DNA of 63,173 nt, the filler included, from Candidatus Woesearchaeota archaeon (GTDB lineage: Archaea; Nanobdellota; Nanobdellia; Pacearchaeales; UBA284): assembly GCA_964354405.1 (NCBI GenBank). It is 27 parts of 27 records of this genome, joined end to end, with 100 filler letters (N's around TTAATTAATTAA, not from the genome) between each part and the next. Parts side by side here need not be neighbours in the genome. Positions count along the whole stretch, not along the records: positions 43,695 to 45,379 come from CAYGZP010000027.1; 26 more parts are not named here. One strand, 5' to 3'. Of this stretch, positions 5,727 to 48,813 are shown in pieces. Every line of letters begins with the position of its first letter. Positions within the stretch are counted from its first letter, which is position 1. Below the pieces are notes generated by a model that saw only the letters and a program-made list of their open reading frames with translations, made no database searches and was not told where the DNA came from. The translations under genes were made by a program, and so were the position numbers.

Positions 5727-5954
5727 ATGGCTTTCAGAAGTAAATTTCACATCGGTGCAACAAAAACCGATATTTATAACGCACTGCATCCGGAACAATA
5801 TCTTCGTCTTGATTCTGATATCATCGGTAATAAATGGATAGAAATAAAATCTGATAGTACCATTATACACGATGAATATAATCCAAAAGTATACGTACAG
5901 AATCAACTCCCAGCAGGGGACGCAGCTCTCATCCGGACTGACGACAAACACTAA
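5727..5954 (+). CDS. Hypothetical viral protein
   Basis: ATG after AT-rich promoter-like motif; overlaps the next ORF by 83 nt. Confidence 0.45.
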   Translation: MAFRSKFHIGATKTDIYNALHPEQYLRLDSDIIGNKWIEIKSDSTIIHDEYNPKVYVQNQLPAGDAALIRTDDKH

Positions 5955-6954
5955 CTTCCCGCTTAGCCAAATTGTTAATCTCATCTCCGTTGGCGGGATG
6001 TTCCAGCTACGATGTCACGGAATTACCATCCCATTCAGCTTTTATCAGATGTCCAGCGATATTAACACTCTTACTTGCATTTTTACCGACGCTTTCGGTA
6101 ATACCAAAACTAGCTCTATCACTCTAACTGCCGGAAACTATACTTGCTCCAGTATCCTTACCGAATTGCAAACCCGCCTCGTCGCCGCTGCTGCTATCTC
6201 TAGCGGCTTGTACGTCGGTTTTGTCCTAGGTTGTTCTTTTAGCTACAGTTCCGGAACTGGTAAATCTATTCTCGCAATTACCAATGCCGCTCCCGTTAGT
6301 GTTCAAATTAATTTTGCTAGTAATCTTAACGCTGGATTGTTTTTTGGATTTTCTACTAATCAAGTTATCGCTCTCGCCACTCCTAGAACAAGCACTCAAG
6401 TCGCAGTCGCCAATCCTGTTTCTTATCTATTGCTACGTTGTAGTAATCTGAAACAGTTTAATAACAGAGAATTTATTACATCCCCCGATATCTTTTCCGA
6501 TGTCATTTATAGAATTCCAATCGTCACCAATCAAGGCACATGGATACAGTACCTACTCGCTTCTGAACCTGTTTTTATTGCTAATAATAGCATTACTAAT
6601 TATACATTTTACCTTACGACTAACTTAACTACGTCTCCTATTGATTTACAAGGATTGTTTTACTCTTTCCAGTTTACCGTTGATGAAGTTGCTCATCCGA
6701 AATATGAATCTCTTAATGCTGCTCGTTTTGCCAATCAAACCACTCTCGGCGAAGACAGAGATTTACAAGAGCTTATTCGTCAGCGAGACGCCGAGATTGA
6801 ACGCCTTAAAGTCTACCAGAAAAAACTAATTAAGGATGACGAACCGAAGCGGAAAACATTAGACGAGGCATTAGCTGATATTGAACAAAGCGTAATAGGT
6901 GGTACTCGTGGCGATTTCGCTCAACCCGCTCCAGCCGGTGGTAACGTATTCTAA
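5872..6954 (+). CDS. Putative minor capsid (penton) protein, PLV-type
   Basis: INS..G, IPFSFYQ, ITLTAGNY, GLFFGF, YLLLRCSNL, SDVIYRIPI, IDLQGL.YSF pattern typical of PLV/NCLDV single-jelly-roll pentons. Confidence 0.7.
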   Translation: MNIIQKYTYRINSQQGTQLSSGLTTNTNFPLSQIVNLISVGGMFQLRCHGITIPFSFYQMSSDINTLTCIFTDAFGNTKTSSITLTAGNYTCSSILTELQTRLVAAAAISSGLYVGFVLGCSFSYSSGTGKSILAITNAAPVSVQINFASNLNAGLFFGFSTNQVIALATPRTSTQVAVANPVSYLLLRCSNLKQFNNREFITSPDIFSDVIYRIPIVTNQGTWIQYLLASEPVFIANNSITNYTFYLTTNLTTSPIDLQGLFYSFQFTVDEVAHPKYESLNAARFANQTTLGEDRDLQELIRQRDAEIERLKVYQKKLIKDDEPKRKTLDEALADIEQSVIGGTRGDFAQPAPAGGNVF

Positions 6955-6978
6955 TTTTATTATATTGACTATAGTAAA

Positions 6979-7362
6979 ATGTTCTACCACAACGACAAAG
7001 GTCGCCGAATAAACCTCCTGAACACTCGTCCGCGCAATCTATCCGCGGGTGGTATTATTACCGGTAATCCTCCCGCTAAAGATAAGTACGAAGATACTGT
7101 ATACAGCAAGTTAGAATATGGCTCTCTCGTCGTTCCCGTACCGGTTATGCGGTCCGGTATTATGGATAAGTATAAAGGTCCCATTACCGGTCCAAAACAA
7201 CATGACCCTACAAAACTAGGAGATACGATTGTTATGCCTAAAGAGCTAGTTGTTCATAAAGACCATGCCGATAAAGTAGAGAATTTTCTAAAAAAACACG
7301 GAATTACATTACCATTACCAAAAGATTTTGATGTTAGTAATGTAATAAAAATAAAATCTTGA
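6979..7362 (+). CDS. Hypothetical viral protein with internally duplicated DT(V/I)...(LV)VP/VH motif
   Basis: AGGIITG...DTVYSKLEYGSLVVP and ITGP...DTIVMPKELVVH. Confidence 0.6.
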   Translation: MFYHNDKGRRINLLNTRPRNLSAGGIITGNPPAKDKYEDTVYSKLEYGSLVVPVPVMRSGIMDKYKGPITGPKQHDPTKLGDTIVMPKELVVHKDHADKVENFLKKHGITLPLPKDFDVSNVIKIKS

Positions 7363-7382
7363 CATAGTACAAACAACCGAAA

Positions 7383-7868
7383 ATAGTGCTAGTTCAAGTG
7401 TTAATTAATAATACGTCTAACGGTGGCGTTAATGCTTCTCCTACTGGCTCTTATTACACTATTCCTATCAGCGGTAAATGCTCTGTCCGCGTACTACACG
7501 TTCAATTTCATTCTTCTGTAGCAGCTAGTGTTAATCAAGTACTCCGACTACAATCGGATGCTCTCATTGCTAATTATTCTCCGTTGAAATTTATTACTTT
7601 TATGAATAACGGGCAGTCTAGTACTAACTTTGATTCTAGTTACCGAGAATACCATTTCCAAAACGTCGTTCTAAACGGAAATATTTTTTTCAAGTTAGAA
7701 GTTGTCTCTGGAACTACGTTATATGGAGCTAATAATGATGCTATTGTACCTGCTGCTGGAACGTATAGCTGCCTTCTTACACTTGAGGTAGAATACATCA
7801 ATAAACAGTTTGATTCGGTAAACGAGTCAGCTCAGCCTTCTTCCAAAACTGCCGGTTCGCTATATTAA
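7383..7868 (+). CDS. Beta-rich hypothetical viral structural protein; no ATG at the expected start
   Basis: 160-codon frame fills the gap between neighbouring genes; begins ATA-GTG-CTA. Confidence 0.55.
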   Translation: MVLVQVLINNTSNGGVNASPTGSYYTIPISGKCSVRVLHVQFHSSVAASVNQVLRLQSDALIANYSPLKFITFMNNGQSSTNFDSSYREYHFQNVVLNGNIFFKLEVVSGTTLYGANNDAIVPAAGTYSCLLTLEVEYINKQFDSVNESAQPSSKTAGSLY

Positions 7869-39752: not shown

Positions 39753-39852
39753 NNNNNNNNNNNNNNNNNNNNNNNNNNNNNNNNNNNNNNNNNNNNTTAA
39801 TTAATTAANNNNNNNNNNNNNNNNNNNNNNNNNNNNNNNNNNNNNNNNNNNN

Positions 39853-40304
39853 ACTTCCTGCGCGCTCAAGGAATTATACCTCATATTACCGCAGCAATCG
39901 TACATCTGCGACTCCGGCGGCATCTCGGTCCCGATGTAGAAGAATCGGCTGCCCATCCTCGCGCCGCGATAGTACCCCGCCGGCTGGAGCCCGGACAGGT
40001 CCTTCTTCATGACCGGGTTGTTCTCGGCGTAGATGTACGGGTTCGCGCCGAGCGGGCTCGACGGCGCGGGCAGCTTCTCGTAGCCCATCCGGTCGCGCTG
40101 CAGGAAGCGCCCGTACGCGGGCCAGTAGTGCCGCTCGCCGCAAAGGTAGATCGCGTCCGTGCTCGTCACCGACTTCGCGAAGCACTCGACCCTCGCGCCG
40201 CCGTAGCGGACGTTGTTCTCGGTCGGCGGCAGGTTGGCCGTGTCGGTATGCTCCCCCCACGCGTCGTAATTGTAGTGCTCCATATTCCGCTCGTGATCGG
40301 TCAT
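39853..40304 (-). CDS. Orphan Rhs-associated core module with start of an alternative toxin tip
   Basis: YNYDAWGE, RYGG, RHY.PAYGRFLQRD, NPYIYAENNPV..DLSGL. Confidence 0.85.
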
Positions 40305-40332
40305 GATGATACTGCTCCAAACAAGTGCTGCC

Positions 40333-40719
40333 CTAGCCAGAATCGACGCCTCCCGTTCTCTTTCCTAGAGTCCGTTTTGTAATCAACACGAACGCGCATA
40401 ACAATACGATTATCACCCAAGCGACTGGATCTCGGAAAACCACGACAGCTACTACAATCAAATTCGCAGCCCCAACCTTCTGAGCCATCATAGGCAGCAC
40501 TATTGCCATCGCCAACAGGTTGGCTATTAGTCCGTAGTACACCCATCTCTTTCCAGACAGCGCCGCCACAGATAGAATAATACATAGCATACCTGAGGTA
40601 ATTCCGAAATAGTTGATATCATTTCTTAGACCTAGATACCCGTTAGAAATAATCGTTTGAATGCCAAAAACCATGATAACGATTAGTACGATTTTAAGCG
40701 GCAATGGTATCTTGTTCAT
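40333..40719 (-). CDS. Putative immunity protein (multi-TM membrane protein)
   Basis: Low-GC hydrophobic ORF directly downstream of the Rhs tip. Confidence 0.55.
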   Translation of the reverse strand: MNKIPLPLKIVLIVIMVFGIQTIISNGYLGLRNDINYFGITSGMLCIILSVAALSGKRWVYYGLIANLLAMAIVLPMMAQKVGAANLIVVAVVVFRDPVAWVIIVLLCAFVLITKRTLGKRTGGVDSG

Positions 40720-40769
40720 GGCTAACTCAGCGGCTAGTTGCCGCAGCGATAGTAATCAGTAAGGTAGAA

Positions 40770-41697
40770 TCAAGGCACGGAGACGATCTCTATTTTCTGG
40801 CCACTGTTATATACGTCGATTTTCAAGAACCAGTTGGGGTTATTAGGCAAGTACAGGCCGATCCAATTATCGGCATTGGCCGTGAATCCGCTTCTCCATG
40901 GCGGAACCAACCCCCAATATGTATTGCCTAAATGAGCAGTGTGACCGGCGTACCCATACTGCCAATTGGTTTGATTGTGATTATACCAACGATCATGTGA
41001 AAGCTCATCCCATAACATATCTTGAATTTCTGAGCAGGAAACCCAGGGGCGATATTCAAACAAATTGTATGCAATAGCAGGAAGTGATCCCAAGAAACTC
41101 GAGACATCTAGAAACCTTTGGAGGTTTCCGGTCCGATGAGTATCATCGAAATTCTGATACCATCCATGAAACTTGGGCAATATCACGTCAATGAGGAATG
41201 CGGCGTCGTCCGCGGGCAGCCATATTGCGTTCCCGAAGTCATCAGTGAATTTGACTAGAGTGCTGGGAAAGCCTGCGGACCGAGGATCGCCCTCGAACCC
41301 GAGGTCCTTGGACGGCATCCTAATCGGGCAGCTGCCATCCTTCCATGGCGGGCAACTGAGGTGCTCGCATTGCTCCAGATACGTGCACAGCAGGTCAGGG
41401 CTGGCGGCGGTGATCGCCTTGCAGGTCTCGTTCGGCTGACCCTCCCCGGGTTTCGCCTGGCAGAGGTCGCTACCCCAGCCCGCACGCTTCTGCCACCAGC
41501 TGAACCGGGCCGTTCCCCCGAGCTTTTCGTTCCATACCGGACTCATGGCGACTTCCTGCGCGCTCAATGTATTATACCCCTTATCACAGCAATCGTACAT
41601 CTGCGACTCCGGCGGCATCTCGGTCCCGATGTAGAAGGACCCGCTGCCCATCCTCGCGCCGCGATAGTACCCCGCCGGCTGGAGCCCGGACAGGTCC
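40770..41697 (-). CDS. Rhs protein C-terminus / polymorphic toxin tip (5'-truncated)
   Basis: Frame opens at DLSGLQPAGYY, identical to the orphan core end; GC drops across the tip. Confidence 0.75.
41551..41697. repeat. About 150-bp imperfect direct repeat of 39853-40002
   Basis: ACTTCCTGCGCGCTCAA...GCAATCGTACATCTGCGACTCCGGCGGCATCTCGGTCCCGATGTAGAAG...GGAGCCCGGACAGGTCC present in both. Confidence 0.9.
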
Positions 41698-41967
41698 NNN
41701 NNNNNNNNNNNNNNNNNNNNNNNNNNNNNNNNNNNNNNNNNTTAATTAATTAANNNNNNNNNNNNNNNNNNNNNNNNNNNNNNNNNNNNNNNNNNNNTAT
41801 CATTTGACAAATTATCGGCATTATATTTAATTTGCTGCCGTAAATACTGGTCTAAGTCCCAAATAAGTGATTTATACCTATCTGCATTTATTGCAGTTTC
41901 AAATTCTTTTTGGTCATCACGTAAATCAAATTCTAATATTCCTTTCATATAATGTATGATTTATCAT

Positions 41968-43460: not shown

Positions 43461-43728
43461 AGTAAATTTTAATTATATCAATTTGTCAAGTTTATTATTC
43501 AGAAAACTTGACTTCTAAAACCCAAGTATTCCACCATTGGGACTTGGTAAACCAACAACAATATCTGTTACACTTCCCGCGCATCCATTCGCACNNNNNN
43601 NNNNNNNNNNNNNNNNNNNNNNNNNNNNNNNNNNNNNNTTAATTAATTAANNNNNNNNNNNNNNNNNNNNNNNNNNNNNNNNNNNNNNNNNNNNTTTGGT
43701 GGGTCAAAGTCTCAGTTGTGCCCGGTCC

Positions 43729-44808
43729 TTACAGCGGGCGATCTTGCTGCACCAACAGAGAACAGGTTGCGCCCGCAATACCTTGCGTGAGCAGCAGCTT
43801 GATTTTCCGATAGGCTGCCGCATTGAGCCAGGAAGCCGGGTCGTCAGGAACACCGAACCCGAAACCCAAAACACTGTGTGGCAAAGATCCATAGGTAAGG
43901 ATCTCGCAAGGAATGTTAGCGATCAGCACACCAGCATCAGTTGCGCCATGGGGTGCAGCCCAGTTAGAACCGGAGCACCATGCACAGATGAAACGGGTAC
44001 CATCAGCACGCGCCACACTAGCACCCATTGTATTCCCGATACAAACATCTTTTGTCTGCGCGTTGTTGGCGTTGACGTGGACCCGTGTGCGGCAATACCC
44101 AAAAGCCTGTTCGATGTCCTCAATGCAATCCCATCCGGATCGGTCAAAGGCAATAAACTTGCCCTCATCACAGTCCAGACGGTACCAGTTGATGATCGCC
44201 GCCGGTGCGGTCAAAGCCAACCACGGAGCCACATACAACCGCCGGATCACAAGGTCGGTCGGAAGCTCGGTTACGTCGATCCCCGCTGCAACCGTCACGA
44301 AATCACGCACGTCCGTAGTAAACAGACAGGACGACGCGCCAGGTACACCTTCCATGATCTTTGCCCGGATTCCCAAGGTCAGGGACCCGGCAAGGTGCAA
44401 GGGGTCCGCGGCCCATGTCACGCGGATCTGCGGGTTTCGGAGCTTGGTCGGGTCAAAGTTCCGCAAAGGGTCGCCAAGGTATCGACCGAACCGCATGGGG
44501 AAGGTAAAGTTCTGTCCCGCGTTTGCCGCTTCGTCCATCCAGTGCGGAGGATACCGCCCCGTGTTGTAGAAAAAGTCTGCGGCAAGCTGTGGTCCACTCA
44601 GGCTTGAGTACACGGTGCCACCGTCCACCAGCTCGATCCTCTGGACGATCCGAGGAATGAGCTGCCCGTTCAGAGCAGCGCCGCCGTTGGTCAAGGCCAT
44701 CACGACGGAGAGCTCAGTCAGCGGGGAAGTCACATCCAGGTCGATCGTAGCCGTCCCCGTATTGACGACGGCCATAACAGGCTGAACGTTAACATCTCTG
44801 TACTGCAT
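43729..44808 (-). CDS. Double jelly-roll major capsid protein (small prokaryotic DJR virus)
   Basis: 359 aa in two beta-rich halves (TIDLDVTSPLTEL / VTELPTDLVIRRL); RIELVDG...SLSG, FGRYLGD...DP....NPQIRVTW. Confidence 0.7.
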   Translation of the reverse strand: MQYRDVNVQPVMAVVNTGTATIDLDVTSPLTELSVVMALTNGGAALNGQLIPRIVQRIELVDGGTVYSSLSGPQLAADFFYNTGRYPPHWMDEAANAGQNFTFPMRFGRYLGDPLRNFDPTKLRNPQIRVTWAADPLHLAGSLTLGIRAKIMEGVPGASSCLFTTDVRDFVTVAAGIDVTELPTDLVIRRLYVAPWLALTAPAAIINWYRLDCDEGKFIAFDRSGWDCIEDIEQAFGYCRTRVHVNANNAQTKDVCIGNTMGASVARADGTRFICAWCSGSNWAAPHGATDAGVLIANIPCEILTYGSLPHSVLGFGFGVPDDPASWLNAAAYRKIKLLLTQGIAGATCSLLVQQDRPL

Positions 44809-44839
44809 AGCTCTAGTCCTCCAACCCTACGAAGCGGGG

Positions 44840-45271
44840 TTATCGCTTGAACTCGAACTTTGCCATACCCCGAACCCATGTCGTCATCCGGGAAACGGAG
44901 TCCTCGAGAGTCAGATCCGGCAGCTTGGAAACCTCAGCCTGGAGAGTCGCCTCATGCGACAAAAGCTGGGTCGCAAAGGCTTGCACCTTCCCCGCCGAAC
45001 CGTCCACACCCGCAGCGACCCGGTTGAGACCCTTCTCCAGCATAGACTTTTTCCACTCTTCCAGCGTCACCGCGCCGACACGCCGCGCCCAGGTGCCGTC
45101 GTCCAAGCTTCGGACAATCCCGGCGCGCATCTTATCCAGCTTCTTGGCAGCCGCAGCGCCAGGAGCCGAAGTAACACCCTCAACCCCGCGCCGCATATCC
45201 TCCAGCGCGCCCTTCAAGCGCCGACTGTGCTTCTCCACAAACTGCTCAGGGGTGATCGTGATCCTTGCCAT
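44840..45271 (-). CDS. Basic all-helical virion/nucleoprotein candidate
   Basis: 143 aa, Ala/Lys/Arg-rich amphipathic helices; first gene of the operon; AGGAGG ribosome-binding site. Confidence 0.6.
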   Translation of the reverse strand: MARITITPEQFVEKHSRRLKGALEDMRRGVEGVTSAPGAAAAKKLDKMRAGIVRSLDDGTWARRVGAVTLEEWKKSMLEKGLNRVAAGVDGSAGKVQAFATQLLSHEATLQAEVSKLPDLTLEDSVSRMTTWVRGMAKFEFKR

Positions 45272-45325
45272 TTTGTCTTCCTCCTAGAGTACATGAATGA
45301 GATTGAGCCAACACCGACTATCCCC

Positions 45326-45354
45326 ATGGTACACCTTTTCTTACCCGCTGTCAA
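45326..45354 (-). promoter_or_regulatory. sigma70-type promoter TTGACA-N17-TACCAT
   Basis: Perfect -35, 17-nt spacer, 4/6 -10; about 55 nt upstream of the 45271 start. Confidence 0.7.
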
Positions 45355-45479
45355 GTAAGTGAAATCTCTTATACCAAACNNNNNNNNNNNNNNNNNNNNN
45401 NNNNNNNNNNNNNNNNNNNNNNNTTAATTAATTAANNNNNNNNNNNNNNNNNNNNNNNNNNNNNNNNNNNNNNNNNNNN

Positions 45480-47928: not shown

Positions 47929-48713
47929 ATGGCTGGTCAAATTTGGGTTACTAATTCGCTTGGTGGCTATATGTACTCGGACCAACTGTCCAAGGTGCTG
48001 CGCCACGCTGTTCAACCTCTGTGCAAATTCCGCCAGTTCGCCGACGTGAAAGATGCCGCCGTCCAAGGCAAGGGCAAGGGCGACACCTTCCACTGGAACG
48101 TCTATTCGGACATCGCGTCGCAAGGAACGGTCCTGACGGAAACCTCCGTGATGCCGGAATCGAACTTCACGATCACCCAGGGTACGATGTCGATCACCGA
48201 GTTCGGCAACAGCGTCCCCTACACCGGCAAGCTGGACGACCTGTCCGAGCATCCAGTAAAGGAAGTCATCAACAAAGTCCTGAAGAACGACGCGATGAAG
48301 GCATTCGACATTGCCGCCGCCGCAGAATTCAACAAGACCCCGCTGCGCGTCGTCGCAACCTCGACCCACACCACGTCCGTCGCCCTGACGACCAACGGCA
48401 CGGCTACAGCTACCAACGGTATCGAACTTGGCAAGGATCACGTCAAGGCGATTGTCGACCTGATGAAGGAGCGCAACATTCCTCCGTATCAGATGGACGA
48501 CTACATCTCGGTTGCCCACCCGTCGACGTACCGCAAGCTGAAGAACGACCTTGAATCCGTGAAGCAATACACCACGGAAGGCTTCGGCATGATCCTGAAC
48601 GGCGAAATCGGCAGGTATGAGAATACCCGCTTCGTCGAGCAGAACAACATCGCCAAGGGCACGTTCGCCGGCGGCAAATCCAACTGGGCCTACTTCTTCG
48701 GCGGCGATACCGT
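47929..48713 (+). CDS. HK97-fold major capsid protein (N4-gp56-like), 3'-truncated
   Basis: KFRQFADVKD...GKGDT, ITEFGNSVPYTGKL, VAHP, NGEIGRYEN.RFVE. Confidence 0.85.
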
Positions 48714-48813
48714 NNNNNNNNNNNNNNNNNNNNNNNNNNNNNNNNNNNNNNNNNNNNTTAATTAATTAANNNNNNNNNNNNNNNNNNNNNNNNNNNNNNN
48801 NNNNNNNNNNNNN

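Follow-up and report, generated by a model that had tools for sequence, protein, structure and literature searches.

A basic helical protein encoded ahead of a double jelly-roll capsid gene: a candidate nucleoprotein of a putative Odin-group virus

The 1,685-bp contig CAYGZP010000027.1 most likely carries the left end of a tailless icosahedral virus belonging to the Odin group, as a new member of this already described uncultured group, and the first gene of its structural operon encodes a 143-aa basic protein that, on balance, would probably act as a DNA-coating nucleoprotein around which the double jelly-roll (DJR) shell assembles; we infer its binding to DNA from sequence comparisons. In the proposed mechanism, the host RNA polymerase would transcribe the rightward structural operon from a promoter at the genome end, and the first gene would yield many copies of the basic helical protein. 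This protein would self-associate, probably as dimers, and coat the viral dsDNA regardless of its sequence. DJR trimers and vertex proteins would then assemble around the condensed nucleoprotein, which is the reason why no motor would be needed.

The window, the whole stretch of DNA analysed (63,173 nt), consists of short contigs, unrelated to one another and strung together with N spacers, and the gene pair is confined to one of them. The features of this contig, in positions of the window, are the following.

43695..45379, strand not assigned: whole contig (57% GC), most likely from the left end of a tailless virus with a genome of 9-13 kb
45326..45354, minus strand: sigma70-type promoter TTGACA-17-TACCAT, matching 10/12 consensus positions and conserved in relatives
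45280..45285, minus strand: Shine-Dalgarno (SD) sequence AGGAGG, separated by 8 nt from the start codon (ATG) of the small gene
44840..45271, minus strand: 143-aa basic all-helical protein of Odin cons1 type, candidate genome-coating nucleoprotein (homology, model, synteny)
44822..44842, minus strand: weak hairpin beginning in the small-gene stop codon (-6.9 kcal/mol, z = 0.1 against shuffles)
44818..44822, minus strand: Shine-Dalgarno sequence GGAGG of the capsid gene (sequence inspection)
43729..44808, minus strand: ORF of the 359-aa predicted DJR capsid protein (AlphaFold2 model, fold searches, Odin consensus motifs)

The elements read by the original prediction (promoter, AGGAGG ribosome-binding site, 143-aa basic helical protein, weak hairpin, and 359-aa two-lobed beta protein) are thus all present. 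The genome bin in which the contig was deposited (G000, where it is contig C27) is uninformative regarding the host, and reading the host from it was ruled out, because the contig has 57% GC against 37% in the two main contigs of the bin, and because no further virus piece was found there: the other contigs of the bin gave no match to the related viral genomes except two weak ones of a single ORF. The bins containing relatives were likewise dropped as host clues, since those contigs stand alone. Elsewhere, the window (1-63173) holds mixed short contigs of 28-73% GC added to a small 37%-GC genome, several of which look viral; examples are an ORF resembling a capsid gene (47929-48765) and fragments of RHS type (39801-41700).

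The predicted structure identifies the product of the 359-aa ORF as a DJR capsid protein of viral type, as had been proposed. The AlphaFold2 model, built with 24 homologues, is a two-barrel beta structure (pLDDT 92.9), and a wide VIA search places it at Z 22-23 to three characterised DJR capsid proteins (22.8 for PRD1, 22.5 for STIV, and 22.1 for PM2, with rmsd of 2.6-3.0 A across 246-282 residues) and at 15.9 to that of FLiP, whereas cellular DJR proteins score far below the viral ones, at Z about 12. The top Foldseek ranks are taken by the capsid proteins of PBCV-1, STIV and PRD1, with E about 1e-12 (2e-12 for STIV). Pfam holds no match for either the 359-aa or the 143-aa protein. Compared by motif and by eye with the printed Odin consensus, the 359-aa protein contains the five motifs of the published capsid consensus in order, and both P0025, a distant family member, and the capsid protein of the locus L096 match it closely. 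On these motifs, the virus of the contig is assigned to the Odin group.

The setting of the gene pair is best seen in its relatives, for which we used the best 80 of 518 confirmed metagenome loci plus eight from genome bins. The synteny claimed for the small gene stood up well, with a recognisable capsid-type gene directly after it in 84 of these 88 loci. The next gene, within 251 nt of the small-gene stop, is of the type found in our contig in 77/88, and of a second type, assigned by sequence profile and presumed to have the DJR fold, in 7/88, six of these seven loci having themselves been used to build the profile; the remaining 4/88 carry an unrecognised gene. This second-type gene, with its own downstream small genes, stands behind the same small protein in L024 (843-1922), L058, L085, L086, L087 and L089, and a further capsid type may be present in L040, L050, L061, L077 and L079. 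In all 88 loci, the small gene begins at most 955 nt from the contig end, and the place of our contig is probably near the left end of a linear viral genome.

The genomes of these relatives span 9-13 kb. Among the 25 loci of at least 9 kb, a protein-primed B polymerase (pPolB) with a neighbour of ~150 aa occurs in 22, a protein of 480-920 aa belonging to no annotated family in all 25 (and also in L097), and a ~130-aa beta protein, which may be a candidate vertex protein, in 19. No large protein of this kind was detected in L096 or in the Methanosarcinales viruses vir530 and vir556. Encoded in L003, for example, at 5812-7680, it is helical, has no family or Atlas annotation, and is a candidate for DNA delivery or core organisation. 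The ~150-aa gene, always directly before pPolB (L009:9620-10096, L029:10220-10666), is a candidate terminal protein. Inverted terminal repeats were found in two of the 13 whole contigs examined (113 bp in L024, 46 bp in L040), and an M15 peptidase in two of eight whole contigs; no cell-wall hydrolase was detected in the seven nearest loci, and the majority of the genes match no family. The nearest relatives are L003, with an identical small protein and a capsid protein of 56% identity, and L009 (87% and 49%, respectively), and at the DNA level the contig is 78% identical to L002 and L003 across 1.25 kb. The L009 contig is 12,118 bp long, and its unseen last 1.3 kb should be almost wholly polymerase gene. 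Judging from L003, L009 and the gene content of the relatives, the virus of our contig, whose own DNA is seen for 1.7 kb, most likely has a linear genome of ~12 kb with pPolB and without an ATPase.

The 143-aa protein (~16 kDa) has a net charge of +7 and a pI of 10.0, and its model is all-helical and loosely packed (pLDDT 84, pTM 0.60). We collected 227 homologues at 90% clustering from 328 candidates, and a profile search extends the family to no fewer than 1,396 clusters (50% identity). The net charge is positive in 137 of the 138 family representatives (median +8, pI 9.9), mostly within residues 1-95; lysine or arginine is kept at positions 14, 47, 84, 95 and 128 in 85-100% of the alignment rows; P37, W73, G81 and G88 are nearly invariant; and none of the 138 representatives has a transmembrane stretch. 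The family libraries give one weak PHROG match for the 143-aa protein (E 0.008) and no consistent family over the 138 members, and a sequence search of the PDB returned chance helical matches only. Fold searches with the model gave no clear match (best Z 6.7 with rmsd 10.3 A, and Z 7.2; best Foldseek E 0.66), and no rudivirus or other viral nucleoprotein was among the matches listed, while in a viral structure library the two top rows, with E 0.023 and 0.33, come from an uncultured archaeal virus and measure 139 and 133 aa. In the ESM Atlas, both this protein and the universal large protein fall into unnamed clusters only, no full relative emerged when IMG/VR was scanned with the small protein, and the best value against PM2, STIV and FLiP was E 0.26, with no homologue there. 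Its hhalign probability against the SIRV2 coat is 0.2%, in a test that gives less than 1% even for true DJR homologues. An internal duplication within the protein was unsupported (7%), and a role as terminal protein was ruled out because homologues sit in circular genomes without pPolB. A literature search, from which subscription papers were largely outside scope, found no test of its function.

The best argument for a nucleoprotein, as far as sequence can tell, lies in how the two genes are constrained. In comparison with L002 and L003, the 143 codons of the small gene show 45 and 40 synonymous differences, respectively, and not one that is non-synonymous, whereas in the capsid gene 146 and 158 of the 359 codons differ non-synonymously (41-44%). 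Across 1,711 pairs, the median identity is 56% for the small protein and 23% for the capsid protein; among near-complete genomes the medians are 57% for the small protein, 32% for pPolB and 23% for the capsid protein. The apparent conservation of the small protein is inflated by its use as bait to collect the loci, and in L096 and L097, which were found through the capsid protein, both proteins have diverged to a similar degree. It is still 55% identical between genomes whose capsid genes cannot be aligned by sequence, and it is present both in linear genomes with pPolB and in circular ones without it. A protein bound to the capsid should track the capsid, while no such tracking is required of one that contacts DNA and other copies of itself, and the constraint pattern therefore favours the nucleoprotein. 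In the Altiarchaeum virus Altivir_6, the small protein is represented by two tandem paralogues (hhalign 95% and 98%), a pattern that fits what is expected of a homodimer turned heterodimer. In the Altivir_6_ACLF locus (L102, 264-2054), these paralogues, of 138 and 134 aa, precede a capsid gene of the second type. Against a nucleoprotein counts the charge itself, since +7 over 143 residues is modest for a condensing protein, as does the lack of conserved polar residues reported for the Odin protein cons1 (PMC5894146).

The same pattern bears on the strongest of the other explanations, in which the small protein would be an inner scaffold or cement whose amphipathic helices coat the inner face of the capsid or give form to an internal membrane, the DNA entering by another route, for instance by means of the universal 480-920 aa protein. 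Internal membranes, along with minor proteins that are helical, are features of PRD1, PM2 and STIV, and these precedents among characterised DJR viruses, together with the amphipathic helices, the first place in the structural operon, the large protein in all 25 near-complete genomes, and weak apolipoprotein-like profile matches in five of the 138 members (best E 0.012), would suit such a role. However, a capsid-binding protein should co-vary with its capsid, and here the small protein stays identical next to capsid genes that differ at 41-44% of their codons, and is retained even alongside one that cannot be aligned. It also lacks a membrane anchor, and the large protein that would provide the other route was not detected in L096, vir530 or vir556. 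We consider a scaffold unlikely, although it is the alternative that survives best.

A further explanation concerns the promoter. TTGACA (45354-45349) and TACCAT (45331-45326) lie on the minus strand with a 17-nt spacer and match the consensus at 10 of 12 positions. One promoter-type site on the contig, against 0.5 +/- 0.7 in shuffles, is not significant by itself, and the promoter is convincing because of its conservation across relatives rather than from the score of a single contig. Within 250 nt, 47 of 75 related loci have a sigma70 site scoring 10/12 or better, against 47 of 1,500 control windows from the same loci, a count in which the relatives are not independent, many being near-duplicates, and for which 75 of 90 loci were used, leaving out 15 without upstream DNA or a clear start. 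In the closest relatives, the promoter likewise lies 53-54 nt from the start codon, and an SD-like motif precedes the small gene in 57/75. The hairpin, in turn, was dropped as a regulatory element for want of enrichment: the close clade has short stems of changed sequence at the small-gene stop, and family-wide the mean z is -0.53 at this stop versus -0.51 at the capsid-gene stop (85 and 57 sequences, respectively).

A near-consensus sigma70 promoter suits an early gene, and a role outside the virion would therefore also fit: the small protein might bind DNA in the cell, coating replicating genomes, shielding them from host defence, or controlling transcription, with p6 of phi29 as the comparison. 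That the protein is basic and invariant, and that its gene comes first behind such a promoter at the genome end, speaks for this role. Yet the gene is tied to the capsid gene and not to the replication module, it keeps its position with or without pPolB, and a different gene, that of ~150 aa, adjoins pPolB. An in-cell role is, in our view, improbable, and the virion nucleoprotein is preferred to it.

The promoters also speak to the host. Among relatives with an SD-like motif, 51 of 58 carry TTGAC upstream; TAnnTTTG occurs in 9 of the 13 without such a motif, versus 2 of the 58 with one. TAnnTTTG is a promoter element of Bacteroidota, and its presence suggests Bacteroidota hosts for the SD-less members. 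These A-rich leaders belong to L025, L043, L044, L053, L054, L068, L071, L072 and L073, and in five SD-less loci the element stands 48 nt before the start. The virus of our contig very probably infects a bacterium, judging from its signals of expression, and to this extent the bacterial host first proposed is upheld by the conserved sigma70-type promoter. It does not extend to the whole family, which is not exclusively bacterial: homologous gene pairs also occur in archaeal viruses, namely the Methanosarcinales viruses vir530 and vir556 (E 2e-9 and 3e-10) and Altivir_6 of Altiarchaeum. In vir530 (L090:16725-17900) and vir556 (L091:14530-15727), the capsid gene is split into pieces of 287 aa and about 102 aa, which in the former continue in frame past a TAA and in the latter are out of frame; pyrrolysine read-through in vir530 was ruled out, the stop being TAA.

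The absence of a packaging ATPase comes from relatives (221 ORFs scanned) and not from the 1.7-kb contig. No P-loop family was found in 103 ORFs of at least 120 aa from eight whole contigs, including two with inverted repeats at their ends, nor in 118 such ORFs from seven of the nearest loci, and none of the 19 motif matches in 3071 ORFs is a credible Walker A, the matches lying outside an ATPase context. Both tests caught the positive controls, the ATPases P9 of PM2 and B164 of STIV, and the expectation that complete or near-complete relatives lack such an enzyme is thereby supported. Nothing found here contradicts the reading of the gene pair as ATPase-free packaging, but the arrangement and the idea had already been published for the Odin group (PMC5894146). 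It is very improbable that the element borrows a helper or host motor, or encodes one without a P-loop, with the small protein as adaptor: the many genes without a family match leave room for an unusual motor, but complete genomes have their own capsid, polymerase and sometimes M15 peptidase (2/8 whole contigs), and Altivir_1, which shares five protein clusters with Altivir_6, is described as imaged as a lytic virus (PMC8324899).

Motor-less packaging of dsDNA in DJR viruses is a question standing since 2018, and ATPase-less forms have been argued to be ancestral (PMC8812541). The contig itself is only one more member of a group that, like the general packaging hypothesis, has been published. 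What is new here is the contrast in constraint, the persistence of the small protein with a replaced capsid gene, the tandem pair of Altivir_6, and the promoters pointing to bacterial hosts. This comparative evidence sharpens a testable packaging hypothesis, whose candidate is a single, soluble-looking protein of 16 kDa that can be tested in vitro without virus culture. The small protein is also a better marker of this group than the capsid gene, and the comparison reveals a large bacterial branch with pPolB and ties to the group an imaged clade of Altiarchaeum viruses described as lacking hallmark genes.

With regard to how they would work, the closest systems are SPV1 (Portogloboviridae) and SIRV2 (Rudiviridae), where, as here, a small basic helical protein is proposed to wrap dsDNA. 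SPV1 has a nucleoprotein core inside an icosahedral shell. Its shell is, however, a single jelly-roll, and SIRV2 is a rod, whereas our virus is predicted to be a DJR virus. Adnaviral coats are described as DNA-wrapping dimers, and SPV1 as lacking a packaging ATPase (PMC8812541). Among DJR viruses, FLiP (Finnlakeviridae) is likewise without an ATPase but has ssDNA, whereas PM2 (Corticoviridae), STIV (Turriviridae) and PRD1 (Tectiviridae) share the fold but have a packaging ATPase, as skuldviruses are described to have (bioRxiv 2021.07.29.453957). General background is given in PMC13700489 and PMC12451622.

The group most similar in organisation is the Odin group, described as DJR viruses of 7-11 kb without an ATPase (Yutin et al. 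2018, PMC5894146). Both share the DJR capsid with the same consensus motifs, a small gene directly upstream, the absence of the ATPase, a genome size of roughly 7-13 kb, PolB and M15 peptidase in scattered members, and bacterial as well as archaeal representatives. The small conserved gene before the Odin capsid gene, cons1, was suggested to be essential for packaging (PMC5894146). It is matched to the 143-aa protein by position and size only, and whereas conserved polar residues are reported to be absent from the cons1 alignment (PMC5894146), the 143-aa branch has several conserved basic ones. Judged by eye, the product of the ORF L003:3254-4402 fits the beta-sandwich consensus printed for the Odin group, and its family occurs in 10 of the 25 near-complete loci. 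L096 is a circle with ParB (E 7e-20), an Odin-type capsid gene and a homologue of the small protein (97%); ParB, in contrast to the Odin group, was seen only in this distant locus, and PD-(D/E)XK was recognised in L096 and L097 by eye, with no Pfam match. Huginn virus, reported as a confirmed Odin-group member (PMC9246712), is circular, whereas our branch uniformly bears pPolB and is apparently linear.

Chaacviridae (Coyopavirales; Laso-Perez et al. 2023, PMC9894754) resemble this branch in their linear genomes of 10-11 kb with inverted repeats and pPolB and, by description, in two exchangeable capsid types, a conserved uncharacterised gene before the capsid gene, and an extra small beta-barrel in some capsid types. 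They differ in infecting ANME-1 archaea, whereas a bacterial sigma70 promoter and SD are conserved in this clade. In Altivir_6_ACLF, Altivir_1_MSI, vir530 and vir556, one or more homologues of the small protein immediately precede a gene of capsid type. All of these viruses differ in having archaeal hosts, Altivir_6 further in its two paralogues and its second capsid type, and vir530 and vir556 in their 19-kb circles and the capsid gene in two pieces. Altivir_1 is reported as lytic, with particles of ~50 nm imaged in host cells, and the Altivir_1/6 clade as lacking hallmark genes (PMC8324899); homology of the gene pair ties this clade to the Odin group, a putative link that we did not find in print. 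More tentatively than the role proposed for the protein of our contig, the 143-aa family could be the helical, dimeric, DNA-wrapping nucleocapsid protein, slower to change in evolution than the capsid protein, of a very large uncultured branch of DJR viruses that infect bacteria and archaea, in which the core and not the shell would be the constant part, and Odin and Huginn viruses, Altivir_1/6, vir530/556 and probably chaacviruses would form one co-assembling assemblage.
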